From Candidatus Bathyarchaeota archaeon (GTDB lineage Archaea; Thermoproteota; Bathyarchaeia; Bathyarchaeales; Bathycorpusculaceae), in NCBI GenBank assembly GCA_963717465.1, contig OY970340.1, positions 1,856,001-1,920,000 of the forward strand: DNA of 64,000 bases. The letters run 5' to 3'. Below the pieces are notes generated by a model. It was not told where the DNA came from. It was given only the letters and a program-made list of their open reading frames with translations, and did not search any database. Position 1 is the first letter of the stretch. Every line of letters starts with the position of its first letter. Both the position numbers and the translations under genes were made by a program. This document shows positions 3,933 to 59,722 of the stretch, piece by piece.

Positions 3933-5072
3933 ATGCTTCTTCTTCTTGACAGTCTGGTTCCTGTTTGGTGCATTAGCGCTTGGTCCTGCAGTTTTTATTT
4001 ATCTTTATACACGACATAAATCTTCAGTGTCTTGGCCGACAATCGTTGATGCTAATTACAGACCTAAAGTTTCAATCGTAATTCCTACGTACAATGAACA
4101 AGAAATTATTTCTTATAAACTTGCCAATTCAAGCAGTTTATCATATCCCAAAAAGTCTGCTGGAAATAATAATTGTTGATAGTAATTCATCTGACGACAC
4201 CGTTGAAATAATAAAGAGTTTTGCGCAAGATCAGAAAGACCTGAAAATCAAAATATTGGTTGAAAACGAGCGAAAAGGAAAATCCCACGCTTTAAACTAT
4301 GCCTTGCCACATTGCACTGGAGAAGTAATTGTAATTTCAGATGCTGACTGTTTTTGGCCTACTAACATTCTTGAAGCTGCTTTGCCTTTTTTAGCTGACC
4401 CAAAAGTCGGTGCAATTGGAGGCCCGAAGAACTCTTTTTAATTCAAGACAAACTTGGGTAACACGGATGGAAGAAAGATACCTTAAATCAGCAAATTTTG
4501 TAAGAGTCGGAGAATCAAAGGCTGGGTCAACGGTTTTTTTTGAGGGCGGTTTTAGCGCTTTTAAACGAGAAGCCCTGGATGAATTTGATCCTTATGATAC
4601 TGGATCTGATGACTGCGGTTCAATAATTGGGATTATAGAAAAAAATTATCGCGCAATGCTTGTTAAGGAAGCCAATTTTTATTCAAGCTTTCCCCCATCT
4701 TTTAAAGGTAAAATCAGCATCAAACTAAGACGAATCAATCAGTTAATCAGAGTTTTTGCAAAATACCTCGATTTACTAGTAAAAGGGAAAAATAAACGGA
4801 ACAAAAAGCACTGTCATACCTAATATTATTCTTTATTTGATTTCGCCAATCGCGTTCGTTACTTTCATTTTCCTCTCAATTTACCTATTTCTATCTTTTC
4901 CTTTGTTATTGCTCTTTTTTGTCTTTCTTCTTAATACCTGCAAGTGCGCTTTTACTTTTATGAAGTATTAGAAAGCAACGTTTTGCTTTTTATCTCATTG
5001 ATTGCCGTTTCTTTCGGAAAAAAATTCTCCGTTTGGTCAAAACCAGACGACAGAGTTTGGCAAACTGCATGA
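3933..5072 (+). CDS. Membrane GT2 glycosyltransferase, split by several frameshifts
   Basis: ORFs 3946, 4094 and 4410 join: VSIVIPTYNE, IVDSNSSD, GKSHALN, SDADC; paralog of 37494..38684; ends approximate. Confidence 0.8.
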
Positions 5073-8889: not shown

Positions 8890-10064
8890 ATGCATGTTTG
8901 CCATGTTTGGGAACGTTTTTGGCCGTTAGACATCGGCGGTTTAGAGCGTTACATAATCGGTTTATCACGTTTTTTAGCAAAGAATGAAAAAATAGATTTT
9001 TCCCTAGTAACGGGCAAAACGAAATTTTTGCTTGTTACTAAAAACATAAAAAAAGTCGAGGATGCACGGCTTCATAAAAGTTTACCGTTTGGGTCCAAAA
9101 CCCATCGATTTGGTAAACGGCGTTCTTCATGTATGCCCTTCGCACTCAACCACAATTTATAAAAAATGCAAAATTAGCAAGCCTTTGCCGAGAAGCCGCA
9201 AACTGGGAGACCGCTAAAACTGCAGATATTTTTCATATTCACGGTATTTGGGGCGACTTAGAATACATTAAGCTCGGTGTCTTCTTGAGTCAGCACTTCA
9301 AAAAACCTTTAGTTATAACACTTCATGGCGGATTCATTGGCGACCCCTTGATCGGAGGCATGCCCCTAACAAGCCCTGAAGTAAGAAAAATTTTATTCAG
9401 TGCAAATGCTATCACGACGTACTCCAAAGAAGTTTTTCTTGGACTTGAGCAAATGGGTCTCGACTCCAAAACACGTCTTATAACAAACTTTGTTAATACA
9501 ACATATTTCGCGAATCATAATCATTCCCTGCCTTCAGAAGGTACTGTGATTTTTGTCAGTAGACTTGAAGCCGTGCAAAATCCAGAAGTGATCATCAAAG
9601 CATTCAAATATGTAAACAAGGAATGTCCGAAAGCAAAACTCAACATTGTGGGTTACGGGACACAATTTGAGGCTCTAAAACATTTAATTACAGATTTGGG
9701 TCTTCAAGACTCTGTTTTCCTGATGGGAAAACAAACCGACGTCAGGCAATTCCTTTGGAACAGCGACATTTTTGTGGCTACAAACTTCGGATACATTGCT
9801 TCTCTTGAAGCTTGGTCCGCTGGTCTTGCAGTCATAGCTCCAAATTTTGGAATACTTAAAGAAATCATTTCTAACGGCGATAACGGATTGCTCGTTGCAC
9901 CGAACAATGCTGAACAGTTAGGCAATGCGATTATCGATCTCTTAAAAAACAGAGATTACCGGCTTTCTTTAGCTCTTAAGGGGTTTCAAACCGTAAAAGA
10001 TTACGATATTTCTTCAGTTGCGCCTAAAATGGCAGAAGTTTACCAGTACGCGATGGAAAACTAA
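8890..10064 (+). CDS. GT4 glycosyltransferase, frameshifted near 9065-9130
   Basis: GGLERY, HIHG, FVSRL, SLEAWSAGLAVI, DNGLLV. Confidence 0.87.
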
Positions 10065-10083
10065 TTTTTTTGGAGACTAAAAA

Positions 10084-12213
10084 ATGCCTGATAAAAAAAT
10101 GTCTGATAAAACTCAATTTTTCCAGCAGAACTTTCTAAGCATAGTCATCTTTCTTCAAGTTGTCTTGTATGCTTCTTTCTTCCTTAACATGCCCATAGTT
10201 AGAGAGGTCGTGGGCATTGCATACTTAACGTTTATTCCAGGCATAATTTTTGTAAAACTTTTGAAGCTAGATGATGGCAGACTAAGCCTCGTTGAACTCA
10301 TACTTTATTCAGTCGGATTTAGCATTTCCTTCTTAATGTTGGCCGGATTGCTAATAGATCAATTCGGTTTAATGGTTGGTTTCGATTTTCCTCTATCTAC
10401 TTTGCCTTTGTCTTTATACATAAATACAATTGTCCTAATAGGCGCTGCAATAGTCCAAGTACGTCAAGAAAAAACTAAACAACCCTTCGTTTTAAAAGAA
10501 AAAATTCCCTACTCAGCTTTAATCTTTATTTTTCTCCCTATTCTAAGTGTTTTTGGGACGTACCTAGTAAACGTTTCAGGTAACAACTCACTCTTAATGA
10601 TAATGTTCGTCGCAGTTACATTGGTATTTATCGCCTTCGCTCTCATTAACAAACAGAATATTCATAGGTACTATCCTTTTGTAATTTTTATGATTGCATT
10701 AGCTTTACTGTTCCAATTTTCATTAATTTCAAATTATATCCTGCCTTATGGTGGAGATTCACCTGTTGAATTGTTCGTTGCCAGATATACGCAAATTAAT
10801 TCAGTCTGGTATCCAGTGCTTCCATTTTCATCAGATCAAAACTTAGGCAGAATAAACGCGATGTTAAGCGTGACTGTTCTTCCCACAATTTACTCAAACA
10901 TGATCGGAATGGATCCAACATGGGTGTTCAAAATCATCTACCCACTGATATTTGCCTTCATCCCGCTTGCATTGTACGTTATTTGGCAACCGTACGTAGG
11001 CAAAAAATTCGCTTTTCTTGCCGTTTTCCTATTCATGGCTCAGGCTACGTTCTATACCGAAATGCTAGCGTTAAACCGGCAAATAATCGCAGAGTTATTC
11101 TTTGTACTTCTCTTGGCAGTGATTTTAAACAATAAGATGAAGTTACAAACCAAATTCATAAGTTTCGCATTTTTTGCAGCTGGTCTAATTTTTTCGCATT
11201 ATGCATTAGCGATAATTTTTCTTTTCATGGCTGCTGCAGTGTGGATAATTACTTATGCTCAGAAGCGTTCATCTTATAATTTGCAATTTGGAATGATACT
11301 GCTTTTTTTTGTCGGAATGTTTGGCTGGTACCTTTTTACTTCAGGCGCAATTGTTTATGATAGCTTCGTAACTTTCTCTGGTTATATCACCAGTCAATTA
11401 GGCGATTTCTTAAATCCTGCATCAAGGGGTCAAACGGTTTTAACAGGCCTCGGATTAGCCCAATCGCCTTCACTTATAAACACCATAAGCAGAGTGTTTG
11501 CATATCTTACAGAGATATTCATTGTCATAGGAATCGTTGCATTTTTAGCTAAAAAGACCAAGTTTAACTTCGACAGGGAATACACTAATTTCGCTATAAT
11601 TGCAATCGCTATGTTAGCAGCATTAACCATTGTTCCAGGCTTAGCCAACACATTAGACATGACGCGGTTTTATCATATACTTCTAATTTTTCTAGCACCC
11701 TTTTGCATAATTGGCATGTGGACGCTTGTAAAGGCAGCTTCGAAATATGAAAAAGTCTTAGCGGTTTCCCTCTTAGTAATAATTATAATAGTCCCTTACT
11801 TTCTCTTCCAAACCAACTTTATTTACGAGGTTGCTCAAACAGAAAGTTGGTCTGTTCCCTTAAGTGGGTACCGAATGGATCCCCTAATGTTATACGGAGA
11901 TTTCGGTTACATTGACACCTACAGCGTTTATGGAGCAGAATGGGCTTCGATCAATACTAACTATCAAAACAATATAGTCGCAGACAACGCTTTGTACACT
12001 GCATTAACCGGTTATGGGCTTATTTGGAGAGGATACGTCACTGAACTTACTAATACCACTGTCCTACCACCAGGTCAGTACGTATACTTGAGCTACATCA
12101 GCATTAATTATGCACAAGAATATGAAAATGGAACCATACCAGCGATAGTTTCACACACAAACGTTATTTATTCAAATGGCGGCTGTGAAATCCGCTATGT
12201 TCCAGGCTCATAA
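10084..12213 (+). CDS. DUF2206-like polytopic membrane protein
   Basis: Many TM segments; FIPG, MLSVTVLP, FKIIYP, LNRQIIAELF, SHY, TRFY, IYSNG. Confidence 0.85.
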   Translation: MPDKKMSDKTQFFQQNFLSIVIFLQVVLYASFFLNMPIVREVVGIAYLTFIPGIIFVKLLKLDDGRLSLVELILYSVGFSISFLMLAGLLIDQFGLMVGFDFPLSTLPLSLYINTIVLIGAAIVQVRQEKTKQPFVLKEKIPYSALIFIFLPILSVFGTYLVNVSGNNSLLMIMFVAVTLVFIAFALINKQNIHRYYPFVIFMIALALLFQFSLISNYILPYGGDSPVELFVARYTQINSVWYPVLPFSSDQNLGRINAMLSVTVLPTIYSNMIGMDPTWVFKIIYPLIFAFIPLALYVIWQPYVGKKFAFLAVFLFMAQATFYTEMLALNRQIIAELFFVLLLAVILNNKMKLQTKFISFAFFAAGLIFSHYALAIIFLFMAAAVWIITYAQKRSSYNLQFGMILLFFVGMFGWYLFTSGAIVYDSFVTFSGYITSQLGDFLNPASRGQTVLTGLGLAQSPSLINTISRVFAYLTEIFIVIGIVAFLAKKTKFNFDREYTNFAIIAIAMLAALTIVPGLANTLDMTRFYHILLIFLAPFCIIGMWTLVKAASKYEKVLAVSLLVIIIIVPYFLFQTNFIYEVAQTESWSVPLSGYRMDPLMLYGDFGYIDTYSVYGAEWASINTNYQNNIVADNALYTALTGYGLIWRGYVTELTNTTVLPPGQYVYLSYISINYAQEYENGTIPAIVSHTNVIYSNGGCEIRYVPGS

Positions 12214-16441: not shown

Positions 16442-18083
16442 ATGGATAAAGCGCTTCAGATGGGCAAGTCATCCACGACTGGCAGTTTTCACTTGCTAAT
16501 AGGTGTAGTGGGATCGACAGTAATCCTTGCTGTAGGTACGCTTATCTTAGCGGAATTTTTGACGGTTGATCAACTTGGACTTTACGGAATAGTTCTAATT
16601 CCAGCAACTATGATAGGGTTTTTTCGTGATTGGGGCGTTAACTATGCACTGACTCAACAAATAGCCAGTTTAAGAGCAAAAGGAAACGAAGGGGAGATTC
16701 ATAATGTTATTGTTGCAGGCGTAGTTTTTGAGGTAATTACTGGATTAGCTCTGTCACTTGTGAGTTTAGGTTTAGCTGTACCATTAGCGGTTATTCTGCA
16801 GAGGCCAGACGCTGCAGGGTTGATGGCACTCATGTCTGTCTCAATATTTGGTGGAGCATTAATTTCCGCAGCCTACTGGGATTTTTGTTGGATTTGAAAA
16901 AATGAAGTTCAACAGTTTTACTCAGATATTTCAGGCTCTGATAAAAACTGTCCTTGCTTCTTTTTTTGTGATTGCTGGTTTTGGGGTTGTTGGAGCCGTA
17001 ACTGGCACCATAATTTCATATATTGCGGGAGCAATAGTTTCAATCTTTATTGTTTACTTTTCATTGTTTAGACCGTTGAGAAGATTCAATGTTGGTCGAC
17101 TTGACGTTTGGCGTACATTAAAGCCTTTACTAGGCTACGGTATACCCTTAACGGTATCGAGCGTTGTGGTTGGTGTACTGCCTCAATTCTTCGCTTTTAT
17201 CATGGCAATTTATGCTGGAAACGCGATGATGGGCAACTATTATGCTGCCACCTATTTCGCTGTTCTTTTGACTTTTTTAACTTTTCCAATTGCAACTTCG
17301 TTGTTCCCAGTTTTTTCTCAACTAAACCCTGAAAAAGAGCCAAATCTTGTTTCCGCTGTCTTTACCTCATCCGTTAAATATACAGCGTTTCTTCTTGTTC
17401 CTGCAACAATACTTATCATAACTGTTTCAACTCCGCTAGTGAATACGTTGTTTGGAACAAAGTTTCCTTTTGCTCCAATTTTTTTGGCTCTATATTCAGT
17501 GATCAACTTGTATGTTGTTTTTGGAAACATTAGTTTGAACTCTTTCCAAACAGGAATAGGAAAAACCAGACAAGTAATGAAGCAAAGCCTATTGTCTTTA
17601 GCTGTTGGTTTGCCACTTGCCTACTTTTTAGTTTCCCAGCTAACGCATTTTGGTGGAGAATCGCTGGGTCAATTTTATGCCATAATAGGAGGCATACTGG
17701 GCATTTTAATTTCCAGTGTTCCTGGCATGATTTGGGGTCTTATTTGGACTTGGAGAAATTACAGGGCAAAGGCTGATTTCAAAGTTTCCGCCAAAATACT
17801 TTTTGCTTCAATTCTCGCTGCACTGGTAACTTTTGCTTTCCTAGTGGTCTCTACAAAAGCGCCTTATTGGCTTAACCTGACAGTTGGAGTGGCAATTTTT
17901 CTGCTTGTTTACTTAGTTAGTGCTCCACTTGTTGGCGCCGTTAACCGAGCTGATATCGACAATCTTATTTCAATGGTTTCTGGCTTAGGATTCCTTTCCA
18001 AAATCATCGACCATTTCTTATTGTATATGCGGCGAATAAGCAAAGAATCTCCTAGCACCAAAAAAGTGAATATTGAAGTCTAA
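16442..18083 (+). CDS. Oligosaccharide flippase (Wzx/MOP family), frameshift near 16875
   Basis: Two hydrophobic ORFs join into ~14 TM; GLYG, DWGV, YGIPL, GNYYAA, LFPVFS. Confidence 0.87.
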
Positions 18084-18172: not shown

Positions 18173-18979
18173 TTGACTTTAAACGACGAAGTTAACATGG
18201 CCAAGTCACGCATAGCTGCCACTTTTCTTATTTTAGGCTCGCTTTTACTGGTCATTTCAGTTTTTTATGGAATTCAAATTGTTGCGTTCATAGGGTTAGG
18301 ATTAACTTTTTGGGGTGCCATATTTGTCGTTACACGAACGGGAAATTTTGTTGATAGTGGTTTGCTTGAAAGTTCCGCGAAGTCTCTTTATTCAACGATT
18401 GATAGGATGCTTAATGATCTAAATTATTCTGGACAAGGATACTATATACCTGCTTATCCTCAAAACGTCTACCTTCCAGATTATCTTAAGAATTTGAAAG
18501 AATCAGTGGTTTTTATTTCAGATCGAAGTTTTTCTGGGCCACCTGCAATCGAAGAATTAGCATCAGGCAAATTTTTGTCAGCAAGATCAAGAGGCATATT
18601 TATAACTTCTCCAGGTTCAGGAATCTTGAGTGAAATAGAGAAAAAAATGAACTTGGATTTTACTAAAATTAATGTAAATGATTTATGTGGAATTTTGAGT
18701 CGTTGCATGACTGATTTTTTAAATCTTGCTAAGGCAATGGAGTTATTTGTTATTGACAGCAACACAGTGAGACTGATTGTAACTGGTGTTCTGTACGAAA
18801 GCCTGTACGACCCCGAGAGTAATTGTCGAAGTGTCGGCATTATAGGTTGTCCGCTGGTTAGCGCAGTGGCTTGTGCGCTCGCAAAGTCCTCAGGAAAGAC
18901 AGTGGCAATCAAATCTCAAACATTTTTGTCGAGCAATTCAAAAACTATTGATGTTTTATTTAGTTTTGTGAGAGGTTGA
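18173..18979 (+). CDS. Conserved hypothetical protein, 2 N-terminal TM and Cys-containing C-terminal domain
   Basis: LGLTFWG, YIP, SPG, GCPLVSAVACALAK; paralog of 52238..53086. Confidence 0.8.
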   Translation: MTLNDEVNMAKSRIAATFLILGSLLLVISVFYGIQIVAFIGLGLTFWGAIFVVTRTGNFVDSGLLESSAKSLYSTIDRMLNDLNYSGQGYYIPAYPQNVYLPDYLKNLKESVVFISDRSFSGPPAIEELASGKFLSARSRGIFITSPGSGILSEIEKKMNLDFTKINVNDLCGILSRCMTDFLNLAKAMELFVIDSNTVRLIVTGVLYESLYDPESNCRSVGIIGCPLVSAVACALAKSSGKTVAIKSQTFLSSNSKTIDVLFSFVRG

Positions 18980-52237: not shown

Positions 52238-53086
52238 ATGTCTAAGCCAAAAAAATCCCCCTATAAAATGCCGGCAATTGCAATGCTCACTTTAGCAATA
52301 GTGTTAATAATTATTTCCGCGTTCAACAGTTCCTCTTTTGCAGCAATTTTAGGCGTTACTTTAGCATTCTGGGGCATAATCCTTCTTTATATTTCTCCAG
52401 TTAAACATGTGCCCTTAACAATGCTCAACGCCACATATGACACAAGCAACATCGAACGCCTATTAACATATATGAATATTACACTAAAAGGCGTTTACCT
52501 GCCGCCTAAAAACCTCCCAAACATAGATTCTAATATAGTCATAGATTCTAGTTTGGTCTTCATTCCTGAAACGAGCCAGACTATTGTGCCTCTTCCTGAA
52601 GAAGTAACAAAGTTGTTAACCCCAAGAAAAGACGGATTACTTCTAATTCCGCCGGGCATGAATCTTTGTAAACTTTTCGAGCATGAACTAGGTGGGCCAT
52701 TCGAAAAAATAGACCTTGCCCACCTACAAACTTTGCTTCCAAAATTGCTTATGGAAGACTTGAAGATAGCAGAAAAAGTTGAAATTGACCTTGAAGCAAA
52801 CATAGTAACCGTGAAAGTGACAAAAAGCATTCTATACGAAACATGCGAAGCCACTCAGAAACAGCCTCGCACACATACCCTAGTGGGTTGCCTTTTAAGC
52901 AGTGCTATAGCCTGTGCTCTTGCTAAGGCCTCAGGCCAACCGATAACAATTCTTCAGGAAAAACAAAACCCGGAAACTAAAACCACCCAAACAGACTACG
53001 AAATCTTAACGCTCCTGCCCACTACAGAACCTACAACCACTTCAGCTAAAACCGAACAAGAAAACACCCTTTTTAAAGAGGCGTAA
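52238..53086 (+). CDS. Conserved hypothetical protein (paralog of 18173..18979)
   Basis: LAFWG, VYLPP, PPG, GCLLSSAIACALAK. Confidence 0.8.
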   Translation: MSKPKKSPYKMPAIAMLTLAIVLIIISAFNSSSFAAILGVTLAFWGIILLYISPVKHVPLTMLNATYDTSNIERLLTYMNITLKGVYLPPKNLPNIDSNIVIDSSLVFIPETSQTIVPLPEEVTKLLTPRKDGLLLIPPGMNLCKLFEHELGGPFEKIDLAHLQTLLPKLLMEDLKIAEKVEIDLEANIVTVKVTKSILYETCEATQKQPRTHTLVGCLLSSAIACALAKASGQPITILQEKQNPETKTTQTDYEILTLLPTTEPTTTSAKTEQENTLFKEA

Positions 53087-53088
53087 AC

Positions 53089-53301
53089 TTGCAAATTCCA
53101 CCCTTAACCTTCACAGATATAACTTTCCTTTTAGCTACAAGCAGCATTACACTGCTCATTACAGCCGAACTTGCTTCCCTATACCATGGCCGAACAACCG
53201 TCTTTTTAAACAAGAAAAACCTAGAAAAAGCCGCATTGGTAATTGGTATATTATTTCTATTGACGATTGCAGTAAAAATAATAAATTTAATCACAATATG
53301 A
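53089..53301 (+). CDS. Small 2-TM membrane protein (paralog of 18976..19191)
   Basis: PLT..D....LA...I.LLITAE. Confidence 0.75.
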   Translation: MQIPPLTFTDITFLLATSSITLLITAELASLYHGRTTVFLNKKNLEKAALVIGILFLLTIAVKIINLITI

Positions 53302-53538: not shown

Positions 53539-55637
53539 ATGGAAGAAAACAAATTGCTTTCCACCAAGATGGTTTCAGAGCTGAACCACTATAGATTGTC
53601 GATTGCACTAAAATTCATCGTTATAACCATAACTGTAGTAGCATTGTACCTCCAAGACTTAAACATGATCTTCACGGGTGCTTTAACCAACGAATCAAGC
53701 TACTACATACTTGCAATCCTATTCCTCTTCGGTTACTTAATATACCGAAAAAGGAAAATGATTGCCGCCGCCATTCAAATTCCTCAAACAAGCACACGCG
53801 GATTCCAAAAATACTTCAGCACACTAGCTGGCATATCATTAAGTGCAGTCGCTATACTCTCATACTGGTATGGAAGCTACACCTTCACACCACTAGAATA
53901 TCACATGCTTACCCTGCCTTTTCTAACAGCAGGATTAATCTTAATATTATTCAACACTCAGACACTAAAACAATTACTTTTCCCCATAGCATTCCTCATA
54001 TTCCTCACACCTCCCCTTGACGAAATCCTTTACGGCACTCGGATCAACACTCGCAAACCTAAGTGCATCAGCATCAAATGCCCTTGCAAACCTGTTCGGA
54101 ATACACTCAATACTCTCTGCCAGCAACGTAGGCCCCATAATAACCCTCATCAAATCAAATCAAACAATCTTATCCTTTAACGTAACTGTGGCTTGCTCAG
54201 GAATCTACAGCATCATAGGCTTCGCAATATTTGCACTATTCATAGCCTACATCACCCGCGGTAAACTACGCAACAAATTAGCTATCCTTATCATGGGCAT
54301 TCCACTAATTATGGCACTGAACATAATTCGCATAACAACAGTTCTTGCAATAGGCTATAACTTCGGCGAAGATTTAGCACTACAAGTTTTCCATGCAATA
54401 GGCTCCACAGTGCTAATGTTTTTAGGTACACTTTTGCTGCTGGCTATAACAGAGAAAACATTCAAACAACCAAAGCCGCCACAACCTTGCCTAACATGCA
54501 ACCCGACCCAGACAAACCCAGCCGAACCATTCTGCCCCAGTTGCGGAAAACTCTTCAAACTCCCAAAAACAAAACTCAACAGAGCAGACATCGCAAAAAT
54601 CGCAGGCATCGCTATAATCGTAGTTATGCTTTTATCTATTCAAGCGCCCGTATTCGCCCTAACGCAAGGCCCAGCCCAGGTCATAACCCAAACACCATCA
54701 GGCATCCAAGTTAACACATCAAACTCCCTGCTCCCAAACATCACAGGATACACACTAAATTACCTCTACCGCGACACGCAATTTGAACAAGAATCAGGCG
54801 ATGACGCAGCACTAGTCTACTCCTATGCCTCACCTAACCCAACAACATCACCCATATGGGTAGCCATACAAATAGCCGCCAGCATAACATCCGAACACCG
54901 ATGGGAAACCTGCCTCATCAATTATCCACTCAGCCAAGGAAATCCGGCAACGGTAAACCAACTGGACCTTAGAGATATTCAAATTCAAGATAACCCTCCC
55001 TTAACGGCACGATACTTCGCCTTCCAATACAAAGACACGAACCAAACCCAAGTTATTCTCTACTGGTACGAAACAGCCACATTCAACACAAACGGCACAG
55101 CACAAACAAAAAGCGTAATGATCAGCTTAATTGTGTACCCATCGTCTAATCAAAGCATTTCAGACGCTGAGGCCCAGCTACTGCCAATTGCCAACGCCAT
55201 TAACAACTACTGGAATCCAATACAAACCTGGAGTACAATCGCATTAAGCATCAGCCAAAACGGACTTGCCTTCTCAGCAGGCGCAACCGCCATTCTTGTT
55301 CTACTCATAATCTACGCTGTATACTTAGATAGAAAAGAGAAACTTTTTCTCTTAAACCACTACCAAAAACTCTCAACACCAAACCAACTCATAATAAAAG
55401 CAGTAACCAACGCCCAAAAACAAGGAAACCCAACAACCGAAGGCATAATTACTGAGCTGCAAAAATTAACACAAACAACTGTTGATAAAACATGGCTCAC
55501 AGAAAAACTCACGGAAGCCCAAAACGCCGAACTAATCAAGCAAACACTAGCTGAACAAGAATGACGAACCCCGTATCCAATGGGAAAACCAGGTCCCTCA
55601 GAACACTAGCTTTGCCAGCAAACTTTTCCATTTCTGA
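53539..55637 (+). CDS. Exosortase/archaeosortase-family transpeptidase with fused extra domains; frameshifts near 54035 and 55550
   Basis: LLFPIAFLIFLTPP, catalytic ACSG (Cys), NIIRI (Arg), FH (His); downstream CxxC/CxxC, HRWETC and LYWY. Confidence 0.87.
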
Positions 55638-55736
55638 AGAATATTGGTTCTAAAGAGAAATTATAAAGCGCGCTATAGATAAGTATGTATAGTTTTTCAT
55701 GCTCCTTTATAAGCAACCGACTTTTTAACTTAAAAA

Positions 55737-56297
55737 ATGATGGTCTGTCGAATGAGAGGGGCGAACTTAAGTAAAACCGCTTTATTGATAATTTTAAGTA
55801 TTGCTATTATTGCACCCTTGATGATAAACGTTGTACACGCTGGCACAGGCACGGCTAATACTGTTGGCCAAGTATGGTTGGATGCCCAGCAGAATGATCC
55901 GACTGGTCAATATTGCATCAGTCAAGCCTCTGTTGGACAAACAGTTTACATATATTGGGGCCACATAACGCCCCCATCAGGTACAGTAAAAATTGTTGTA
56001 ACACCCTACGACGAGGATGGAAATGCTTTGACACCAATACAACTTGGCATCTTGAGTCCTTCAGCTTCGGGGACGACGGCAGCCTCTTTTGTTGTTCCTA
56101 ATACACCTAATGGTTACTGCGATGTTTCGCTATATGGACAAGCTACCAAAAAAGCAACCTTACGAGTTGTTGCCAGTGTGACACTGTTTGTTCTGCCCGA
56201 AAGCACATTTGGAACGTTAGCTGCGTTAGGAGCAGGCTTAGCAGCTTTCGCTGTCTATAAGAAACGAAACAGCCTCCCACACTTATATAGAGCCTAA
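55737..56297 (+). CDS. Secreted protein with PEP/PEF-CTERM-like sorting signal
   Basis: Signal peptide ending VHA; C-terminus FVLPES-TFGTLAALGAGLAAFAVY-KKR. Confidence 0.82.
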   Translation: MMVCRMRGANLSKTALLIILSIAIIAPLMINVVHAGTGTANTVGQVWLDAQQNDPTGQYCISQASVGQTVYIYWGHITPPSGTVKIVVTPYDEDGNALTPIQLGILSPSASGTTAASFVVPNTPNGYCDVSLYGQATKKATLRVVASVTLFVLPESTFGTLAALGAGLAAFAVYKKRNSLPHLYRA

Positions 56298-57600: not shown

Positions 57601-57735
57601 CTCGTACACAGATTCGATTATTCTTTCTGAGTTTTGGAATCGACGTTAAGGTTCATTTTTAAGAGCCACTTACTTAACCCAAAGCGTTTTCCTTCTGATA
57701 ACATCGAATCAACTCAATTAAGAGAGGTGAAAATT

Positions 57736-58074
57736 GTGAGTAAAAACCAAGCGTTAGGCGGGATTATACTCGCTGTCTGCATTATAGTAGCAGTAGGATA
57801 CATCATTTTGGTAGGTGCTCCATCATACTTGGGCCTTGACACTGCCACCGTTAGACTTGACGCCGTCCTCATTCTAGTATCCATAGCATTCATCGTCATC
57901 CTTGCCATCGGTGCATGGCTAGGCTACACGATGGCAACAACTCCACCGCCAAAACCCATAGAACCAAAACCCATAAAACAAATCACCACCGAAACAAAAA
58001 AAGAAACCGAAACAAAAAACAAAACACAAAAACAAACAGAGTCAGAAGACAAAACACAAGAATCCAAACCATAA
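57736..58074 (+). CDS. Conserved small archaeal 2-TM protein
   Basis: GAGGTGA ribosome-binding site before GTG; WLGYTMATTPPPKPIE then a charged tail. Confidence 0.8.
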   Translation: MSKNQALGGIILAVCIIVAVGYIILVGAPSYLGLDTATVRLDAVLILVSIAFIVILAIGAWLGYTMATTPPPKPIEPKPIKQITTETKKETETKNKTQKQTESEDKTQESKP

Positions 58075-58290: not shown

Positions 58291-58998
58291 CTAAGAGAGC
58301 TTCTTTAGCTTCTTTAAGACTTCTTCCCTTGTCCTTTCAGTGAACTCTGAGGTGACAAATGTCCCTTTCCATGAGTCCAAGAATCGTTTATCGGAAATAT
58401 CTGAAATTATAAGTTTTAGGTTCTTCACAATAATCTCAGGGTGGGCTAGAGTCTTCTTTGCCTCTTCCTTCAGATTATCGGGAATGCCATTTTTCCATAC
58501 CAGTGTAGCAATGTCTCTTATGTCGCTGGGTCTCGCAGACATTAGCTTTAGAATCAGATAATCGGTGTAATCCGGAACATACATATCGATAGTTTTTTCA
58601 GCGACGGCGATCTTCACTTTCGTGGCTTTTTGCATAAATTTTTCGGTTAAAAAGAATATCTGCTCGTCTAATCTTCCTCTTACTTCGCCTTCCATAAAAT
58701 CCATGGATATCTTGGCATTTGCCTCTAGCAGCTTTACACACCTAAGGAACCCGTAGCTACCCCGCTTCTCAAAAGCCTCAGCGCTCATGTCTTTGGATAG
58801 CATCTTTTGTATTTTATCTATGTTCCAGCCATCTGATTTCTTGAGAACAAAGTCGCAATCCCGTGTATATCGGGAAAATGACGTGAAAGCCCGAAGAGCA
58901 TAGCCACCAATCAAGACCATTTTGGGGTTTTCAAAAGAGACGGTCTTTTCTGATAGCTGATCAATGATCTTGCCGATTTCAACCTCTCTCAGGTTCAT
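58291..58998 (-). CDS. AbiEii/DUF1814-like nucleotidyltransferase toxin
   Basis: LIGGYAL..RYTRDCDF, LILKL..RPSDIRDI. Confidence 0.8.
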   Translation of the reverse strand: MNLREVEIGKIIDQLSEKTVSFENPKMVLIGGYALRAFTSFSRYTRDCDFVLKKSDGWNIDKIQKMLSKDMSAEAFEKRGSYGFLRCVKLLEANAKISMDFMEGEVRGRLDEQIFFLTEKFMQKATKVKIAVAEKTIDMYVPDYTDYLILKLMSARPSDIRDIATLVWKNGIPDNLKEEAKKTLAHPEIIVKNLKLIISDISDKRFLDSWKGTFVTSEFTERTREEVLKKLKKLS

Positions 58999-59011
58999 AA
59001 TTTCAAGGTGA

Positions 59012-59722
59012 TTAACCAAGTTCAACAACCTTCTCGACTGCTTCATCAATTTCTCTTTTCACAAAGTCATCTTCCAATTTTGTCTCTCTGTGCGGAAATT
59101 CAACCCCGCCTAACTCGCCCAACTGATGAAAACCATACTCTAAAGCCTGTTTAGCCCTAACATTTGTCTTTGAAATTCTCTTCCAATAAGATTCCTTGTA
59201 CAACCTGTCCAAACTTATCTTGTCCTTGTTCTCGTATAAGACGGCAAAGGCATCTGTGAAAGCCCATTTCTTTAAGCATTCGATTACATTCTCTTCAATA
59301 TCCTCAACAAGCAAGTTTCCAACTTTCCGATACTTGATCTTGGATGCATCTTTCGAGTATTCGACTTCAACATTCCAGCCTTTCTTTTTGGCGAATTCTT
59401 TCAACGCTTTCCCATAGGACTTGTCTTTAACTTTCAAAACATAGACATCCCTGTGAATGAAATCATTATTCCAGAAAGACGCCGCAGTCTGAGCGGAGAC
59501 GACTTTAAAATTTTTGTCTTTTTCTAAGAAATCCCAGATGTCTTTAACTTCGGCAGGAATCCAGTACCATCCCCACTTGACCCTTTCTATTGATCCTTCT
59601 TTGGCTAATTTGTTCAAGTATTCCTTGGCGTTTGGCTCAATGTTTTTTATGGAGTTAACTCTAACTAAACTTCCTTTGAAGGGCCTCAATTTCTCATTAA
59701 ACTCAGCCAAGTATTCGGGCAT
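59012..59722 (-). CDS. AbiEi-like antitoxin (N-terminal wHTH)
   Basis: YLNKLAKEGSIERVKWGWY, VSAQTAASFW; directly upstream of the nucleotidyltransferase. Confidence 0.72.
   Translation of the reverse strand: MPEYLAEFNEKLRPFKGSLVRVNSIKNIEPNAKEYLNKLAKEGSIERVKWGWYWIPAEVKDIWDFLEKDKNFKVVSAQTAASFWNNDFIHRDVYVLKVKDKSYGKALKEFAKKKGWNVEVEYSKDASKIKYRKVGNLLVEDIEENVIECLKKWAFTDAFAVLYENKDKISLDRLYKESYWKRISKTNVRAKQALEYGFHQLGELGGVEFPHRETKLEDDFVKREIDEAVEKVVELG

Follow-up and report, generated by a model that had tools for sequence, protein, structure and literature searches.

A fused exosortase-EpsI protein with a Cys4 ribbon and a winged helix in Bathyarchaeia, its candidate substrate gene and a possible role for EpsI at the active site

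Introduction

The closest described systems are the bacterial exosortases A and D, to which EpsI is either fused or encoded next door (TIGR03109, TIGR04152, TIGR02914, PF11984) and exosortase W (NF038142). They combine an EpsH membrane domain bearing Cys-x-Gly, Asn-x-x-Arg and His-x-x-x-Gly motifs with an EpsI-like outer domain, a PE-containing C-terminal signal on the substrates, and surroundings rich in glycosyltransferases and flippases. According to the accessible part of PMC1569441, a common DNA motif lies upstream of the substrate genes, as with the PrsR site in front of PEP-CTERM genes in proteobacteria, EpsI is without a known function, and the post-cleavage acceptor is an "unknown periplasmic nucleophile". 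Whether exosortases and archaeosortases act as one-step transpeptidases was still an open question in 2023, as far as the accessible text of 10.1101/2023.06.07.544157 goes. In archaea, ArtA (TIGR04125), which acts with PGF-CTERM signals and belongs to the same superfamily, has been shown to cleave its substrates and direct their lipid anchoring in Haloferax (accessible parts of PMC7157517 and PMC9263693). The thaumarchaeosortase (TIGR04297) and its PEFG-CTERM signal (TIGR04296) are found in Thermoproteota. Haft 2012 reportedly defines the archaeosortase subfamilies. Membrane-tethered one-component regulators of the ToxR/CadC type join an outer sensor domain through a transmembrane (TM) helix to a cytoplasmic winged helix that binds a site next to the core promoter.

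The gene presented here shares the features listed for the bacterial systems, including a motif before substrate genes that parallels the PrsR site. Unlike them it is archaeal, scores below every subfamily cut-off and adds a Cys4 ribbon, a TM helix and a winged helix. Its EpsI motif reads HxWExC instead of the bacterial HxPxxC and its family includes a clade with Ser at both the catalytic and the EpsI Cys positions. Moreover, the sorting signal is VxPE[YSLV]xxG, no sigma-54 or PrsKR is involved and the DNA motif abuts a TATA box. Its resemblance to ArtA amounts to ~20 bits, and ArtA has neither EpsI, ribbon nor winged helix and uses a different signal. With the thaumarchaeosortase it shares the phylum and, in the Ser/Ser clade, the catalytic Ser; however, thaumarchaeosortase frames are 308-341 aa long and EpsI-less, and one occurs alongside a fused Ser/Ser enzyme in the complete genome G506. 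In contrast to ToxR and CadC, its winged helix is C-terminal, Cdc6/Fur-like and joined to a protease, with DNA binding as a prediction only. In literature on archaeal and Bathyarchaeia sortases, EpsI/DUF3485 and sortase-winged-helix proteins, a scope that left out most subscription papers and Haft 2012 (which may mention archaeal EpsI fusions), the architecture, an EpsI mechanism and the motif were not described.

Architecture of the fused gene

Within the window, the whole stretch of 64,000 nucleotides that was analysed, a gene at 53539..55637 joins an exosortase, a Cys4 ribbon, an EpsI-like domain and a winged helix (forward strand, as are all features below unless marked; ~690 aa in homologues). 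In this copy the frame changes at ~54035 and ~55550. Alignment by tblastn with three homologues places the start at 53539 and joins the span into one gene, whose stop codon (55635-55637) is reached after the frame switch. A preliminary description had proposed this combination of parts, and all the motifs it named lie in the single frame of ORF 54017-55564. The proposal holds, as homologues keep every part in one chain instead of encoding them separately. At E<=1e-3, 848 homologues were found among 8000 scored candidates and those among the 120 matches listed are mostly ~690-700 aa, so the fusion is not a chance ORF. The gene is one ORF at 62 of 80 genomic loci, one of the 62 being without the EpsI domain. 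Residue numbers below follow the intact homologue P0006.

The exosortase (EpsH) membrane domain extends over 53539..54036 up to the first break (PF09721, E 4e-11; tblastn) and resumes at 54038..54460. Its superfamily membership is indicated by TIGR04178 (64.9 bits against a cut-off of 23) and PF09721 (59.8 and 43.2 against 25.7), by the catalytic Cys (54194-54196, C209), Arg (54329-54331, R254) and His (54392-54394, H275), all on the outer face in the predicted topology, and by co-occurring substrates with motif-TM-basic tails. Bacterial XrtW, XrtA and XrtD models score 60-100 bits against this part and archaeosortase models ~20-35 bits; it falls below the subfamily cut-offs of XrtA, XrtD, XrtW, ArtA-F and thaumarchaeosortase, the best being 102 of 425 bits (XrtW). 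The 60-100 bits with the bacterial models, together with the HHalign match of the outer domain given below, bear out the earlier suggestion of a bacterial-type EpsH-EpsI arrangement in an archaeon. This genome has one exosortase-family gene and no match to the thaumarchaeosortase model. Bathyarchaeia without the fused enzyme often have thaumarchaeosortase-like proteins of 340-390 aa that score below that family's cut-off (G076, G012, G100, G036, G068).

One TM helix leads outward (54584..54649) and the last returns to the cytoplasm (55241..55330). Judged by positive-inside counts of Lys/Arg, the catalytic loop and the EpsI domain lie outside and the ribbon and tail inside, as had been expected of two TM helices flanking an extracellular domain. 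An AlphaFold model of the full protein from 139 sequences reached pLDDT 91 and pTM 0.92. A sequence search of solved structures with the full profile gave no match, and Foldseek at E<=1e-3 returned nothing for either model; structural rows pointing to GGCX were discarded (TM 0.09).

The cytoplasmic Cys4 ribbon (54488..54547), a putative Zn site, is formed by the two knuckles CLTC (54488-54499) and CPSCG (54533-54547) in a CxxC-x11-CxxC pattern. Both motifs had been correctly read before; the spacer is 11 residues rather than the 10 first given. Two CxxC knuckles are what a zinc ribbon would have, and its loop is rich in Lys/Arg, with Pfam Zn_ribbon_NOB1 reaching E 0.048 only. Across 85 proteins, C322 and C325 are present in 78, C307 in 71, and the second ligand is Cys or His in 54.

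Turning to the outer domain (54719..55225), HHalign, ESM Atlas, Pfam and the AlphaFold model all point to an EpsI/DUF3485-like domain of the Mog1p/PsbP fold, C-terminal to EpsH. Against 30 bacterial DUF3485/EpsI domains HHalign gave a probability of 79.9 and E 1.4e-5 over 134 columns, with H-x4-C and LYWY/YYWY in register: HRWETC (54896-54913) falls on HSPxxC, in which H, P and C are invariant in 30/30 bacterial sequences, and the second motif is VILYWY (55052-55069). The EpsI His (54896-54898) is H443 and the Cys (54911-54913) C448. The Ser clade's own EpsI domain matches bacterial EpsI at E 4.4e-4. The top ESM Atlas matches are DUF3485 at 0.92-0.93, just under the recognition threshold. Pfam PF11984 is found weakly in 10/62 family members (best E 4.6e-4); the curated cut-offs of TIGR02914 and PF11984 are not reached, and TIGR02914 has no match in the genome or in the control. 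Residues 368-550 of the AlphaFold model match Mog1p/PsbP-fold chains such as DcrB (Z 8.6, rmsd 3.3 over 113). A weak Pfam PRMT_C label in 21/62 members was discarded since the fold disagrees. Stand-alone EpsI-like proteins (89-303 aa) gave 87 matches, none Pfam-labelled; most lie on short contigs and are probably fragments.

The cytoplasmic tail contains a predicted winged helix (55361..55590), the last wing strand of which lies past the second break at ~55550 (tblastn, AlphaFold model). The tail model (pLDDT 91) has a three-helix bundle with a beta-hairpin wing and matches Nur/Fur, Cdc6/Orc1 and SAMD1 winged helices at Z 10-11.5, the best being Nur (Z 11.5, rmsd 2.2 over 77) and Cdc6/Orc1 (Z 11.2, rmsd 2.9 over 87); residues 588-680 of the full model match winged helices as well. 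The preliminary description's reading of the two domains, EpsI-like and winged-helix, is thus upheld by profile and structure comparisons made domain by domain.

A candidate substrate and its sorting signal

Adjoining the fused gene, 55737..56297 encodes a secreted protein of 186 aa with a VxPE-TM-basic tail (56184-56282; 47.8 bits, E 5e-13), a candidate substrate. A tail model built without this genome found one clear match in its 3.05 Mb, namely this gene. The tail, V[VIL]PE[YSLV]xxG-TM-basic, occurs 72 times at 44/80 loci, and 63/73 proteins carrying it have an N-terminal hydrophobic stretch. Tails were found by profile, a hydropathy screen having missed the neighbouring substrate gene; the existing NCBIfam tail models (PEFG-CTERM, PEF-CTERM, PEP-CTERM) did not match that protein or six other tail proteins. 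Among 121 Bathyarchaeia genomes, enzyme and tail are both present in 10, the enzyme alone in 1, the tail alone in 3 (weak matches, E 4e-6 to 7e-5) and neither in 107, while some exosortase or archaeosortase occurs in 74. Kinship and training on the same loci inflate the association (Fisher p 2e-11). Judged by this co-occurrence, the tail tracks the enzyme and is its putative cognate sorting signal. In an alignment of tails (A7), 29/67 VxPE tails have a Cys inside the TM helix (AACF), a feature that resembles sorting signals with a Cys.

A palindrome before substrate genes and a possible role of the winged helix

A palindrome copy, TATAGATAA-N10-TTTTTCATG, precedes the candidate substrate gene at 55674..55701. 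Its score is 16.4 bits with a matrix from whose training this genome was left out, and a TATA-like box comes after it at ~55705-55713. Sites with such a score number ~5 per strand genome-wide and the same in shuffles, so the copy carries weight only because of where it lies; for a chosen gene, the chance of such a score within 200 bases is estimated at about 3e-4. Across loci, AAAA-N10-TTTT is enriched upstream of substrate genes (18/65 vs 15/600, p 2e-11, about 10,000 features). The refined motif, TATAGAA-N14-TTC[CT]ATA, is present in 30/65 substrate upstreams, with a TATA-like box ~4 or ~20 bases on. At a score of at least 12 bits the palindrome is found in 30/63 training upstreams, in 30/638 background regions, several of which are missed substrate genes, and in 1/62 sortase upstreams; both the tail and the palindrome models were trained on these loci. 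In untrained sets, the same threshold is reached by 7/13 new Bathyarchaeia substrate genes and by 3/5 in G153 and G458, two genomes from a different family within the phylum (6/19 test regions that overlapped training were set aside and 1 of 20 was not parsed). In G506 it is weak or differently spaced (1/10 at 12 bits or more); two loci of that genome (L205, L206) have TATGTAA-N6-TTACATA right before the TATA-like box of two paralogous substrate genes. A scan for the exact pattern over 121 genomes, an insensitive method, gave 14 matches against 7 for the control; they fall in 13 genomes, 4/11 that have the enzyme (two of these matches are training sites) and 9/110 without it. A second scan gave 4 matches against 6. 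Upstream of 53 sortase genes, no motif was enriched beyond multiple testing. The half-site resembles TTCCA, the core motif of the origin boxes that the Cdc6/Orc1 winged helix recognises in archaea.

The palindrome lends indirect support to the notion that sorting is linked to regulation, and the enzyme's own winged helix may activate the genes that encode its substrates. There is, however, about an even chance that the protein sorts as proposed while the winged helix and ribbon serve as modules for protein interaction or localisation, for example with DUF7982, the division site or the glycosylation machinery, and a separate factor reads the palindrome. Such a role would suit the neutral character of the winged helix (10.1 K/R vs 10.2 D/E), the variable first half of its recognition helix and its conserved acidic wing (D665, P667, W671), as well as the outlasting of catalysis by ribbon and winged helix in dead copies and the presence of DUF7982 at 45/80 loci. 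The genome also has many free small regulators, among them 12 or more small proteins that stand alone and belong to another putative winged-helix family, and ArtA localises to midcell according to the accessible part of PMC7157517. Against it, the best fold matches are DNA-binding winged helices, and the enzyme's is the only putative DNA-binding domain in all intact loci, other candidates being sparser: the small winged-helix family is present at 6/81 and DUF1616 with an HTH-like N-terminus at 22. The latter was not found in this genome, and its N-terminus has no clear relation to the enzyme's winged helix (prob 6).

Covariation of EpsI with the sortase active site

Three findings go beyond the preliminary description: the Ser/Ser clade, the adjoining substrate gene and the covariation between the EpsI His/Cys and the catalytic residues. 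Covariation was calculated over 85 full-length representatives, namely P0006 and those 84 of 150 listed proteins whose sequence covers the profile. Cys is present at both 209 and 448 in 52 proteins and at neither in 29 (18 of them Ser/Ser); three have only C209 and one only C448. The C209-C448 pair ranks first of 205,833 by MI-APC. Once overall decay is removed by regression, C209-C448 ranks first and H275-H443 second of 14,086 pairs, and they keep these places among 15,427 pairs without the 17-member Ser clade, followed by C209-H443 at 3 and C209-H275 at 4, with C209-C322 of the ribbon at 2208. Collapsing the Ser clade instead of removing it leaves ranks 1 and 2 unchanged. As an internal control, ribbon Cys residues covary with one another and not with the catalytic Cys. 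In proteins that have lost C209, C448 is retained in 1/13 and H443 in 3/13, making them the most often lost of 65 conserved columns. One natural deletion follows the same pattern: at locus L060 the EpsI domain has been lost in frame together with C209 and H275, and ribbon and winged helix are kept (9956-11449; its genome yielded no other copy, and the gene lies next to one for a VxPE-tailed protein of 1594 aa). The trees contain only 8-9 changes and most Ser/Ser rows form one clade. An independent-pairs test gave 5 same, 0 opposite and 2 unchanged (p ~0.06), and a second version 4/0/2 (p 0.125). Since the EpsI His and Cys covary with the sortase His and Cys and Ser occupies both sites in a large clade, EpsI is likely to be part of the active site of the fused enzyme; both pairs face outward by the positive-inside counts.

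The Ser clade is informative about what the coupled residues may do. Across 19 proteins with a mean identity of 39%, Ser448, His443, Arg254 and His275 never vary, which favours function rather than decay, and 38/38 further relatives, chosen as kin of the clade and hence not independent, keep Ser, Ser, Arg, His and His along with the ribbon. Several Ser/Ser relatives are assigned by their sources to Nitrosocaldus, Nitrososphaera or Nitrosomirales, so that ammonia-oxidising archaea are represented, and one Cys209/Ser448 protein stands at the base. The clade is distinct from thaumarchaeosortase.

Covariation by itself cannot tell a relay from a disulfide or a metal site. A C209-C448 disulfide, acting as a redox latch or structural tie, or a Cys2His2 metal site with H275 and H443 would produce identical covariation and the same Cys-Cys and His-His pairing, and both Cys are predicted to be extracellular; EpsI would then be a gating lid with no second nucleophile. 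Such a site is nevertheless rather unlikely, because its loss would not fix Ser twice and 55 Ser/Ser proteins (17 + 38) have done so with both His kept. The thaumarchaeosortase likewise has Ser at the catalytic position (3/3 inspected). Invariant Ser on both sides thus favours two His-activated nucleophiles, of which C448 or S448 of EpsI is perhaps the second.

It is less likely still that the Ser/Ser clade is a dead enzyme retained as a scaffold or regulator, with covariation the trace of shared decay. Several non-Cys copies are clearly degenerate, and the Ser/Ser genome G506 has a second, thaumarchaeosortase-like enzyme. Yet the Ser/Ser/His/His/Arg set is invariant, covariation persists after decay correction, and VxPE tails are abundant in that genome (11 matches at E<=0.01) alongside separate PEFG tails. 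Elsewhere in the family, catalytically degenerate full-length copies have arisen repeatedly (P0132, P0151, P0182, P0192, P0193, P0195, P0202, P0209, P0234, P0252), with ribbon and winged helix kept in most.

Proposed mechanism

With moderate confidence, a single-chain exosortase-EpsI sorting enzyme is the best explanation overall. By analogy with its family, the enzyme would very probably cut secreted VxPE-TM-basic proteins near VxPE through C209 at the membrane surface, yielding an acyl-enzyme. The covariation raises the possibility, put forward tentatively, that EpsI then caps the site and H443/C448 takes the protein by trans(thio)esterification and passes it to a final acceptor, most likely an envelope lipid or glycan; the Ser/Ser clade would use the same relay via oxy-esters. 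More doubtful is a third step, in which the cytoplasmic ribbon and the winged helix would act together in regulation: as part of a membrane-bound dimer, the winged helix would bind the palindrome directly upstream of the TATA box of substrate genes and tie the supply of substrate to the state of the enzyme. A second nucleophile is no general requirement, since EpsI-less exosortases and archaeosortases exist and ArtA works with Cys173, Arg214 and Arg253 (accessible part of PMC9263693).

The complete protease-regulator hybrid, with substrate relayed from the sortase Cys/Ser to the EpsI Cys/Ser and its own winged helix activating substrate genes via TATAGAA-N14-TTCYATA, is improbable; if true, it would imply a catalytic role for EpsI in all bacterial exosortase A/D systems. 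Because EpsH and EpsI are fused and Cys is swapped for Ser, the archaeal family exposes a four-residue module (C209, H275, H443, C448) through which the role of EpsI is open to point-mutant testing in culturable EpsH-EpsI bacteria. In addition, a putative sorting signal and promoter motif are defined for surface proteins of abundant archaea of sediments and of certain ammonia oxidisers, and the winged helix is a candidate for a transcription regulator that sits at the membrane as part of a sorting protease.

Distribution, frame breaks and gene neighbourhood

The enzyme is distributed among Bathyarchaeia and some other Thermoproteota in a patchy manner. Almost all of the 80 loci are from Bathyarchaeia, and it is present in 11/121 Bathyarchaeia genomes, 18/401 of the phylum and 3/10 others of the genus. 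Frame switches were detected in 12/80 tested genes of this single-contig genome, the fused gene among them, and split homologues break at other positions, so the two breaks are probably assembly errors. A true pseudogene, which the two breaks and the patchiness even inside the genus might suggest, is very improbable given that all catalytic and motif residues are intact, identity to intact homologues is 72-84% on either side of the breaks, other genes of the assembly are similarly broken and the substrate gene and palindrome are undamaged.

Loci with the fused gene are rich in glycosyltransferases and flippases. The commonest companion is the DUF7982 membrane protein, here at 52238..53086 (ESM Atlas 0.95), and a 70-aa two-TM protein at 53089..53301 recurs at 19/80 loci. 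DUF1616 recurs at 22/80; these proteins stand beside the enzyme at L059, L029, L046 and 19 more loci and have an HTH-like cytoplasmic domain at the N-terminus. Much of the window (157-47493) is a large surface-glycosylation island of glycosyltransferases, NDP-sugar enzymes, a flippase and two ~710-aa multi-TM proteins, in which frameshifts, probably from assembly, interrupt several genes (e.g. 4094-4823, 16442-18083). Two DUF7982 paralogues belong to one glycosylation island (18173-18979 and 52238-53086). Downstream, 57634-58074 encodes a member of a small two-TM family found at 9/80 loci, with weak PIG-P similarity (E 3e-6, L037 member), and the pair at 58291-59722 on the reverse strand resembles, by eye only, a type IV toxin-antitoxin (nucleotidyltransferase and HTH protein). 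Two Ser/Ser enzymes of ~1070 aa (P0237, P0374) end in a nucleotidyltransferase domain (PF14907). In several independent records a polysaccharide flippase (MurJ/Polysacc_synt) precedes the enzyme in one fused protein (L053:8450-12094, P0125, P0130, P0386; 957-1238 aa), which ties the enzyme to glycan export.
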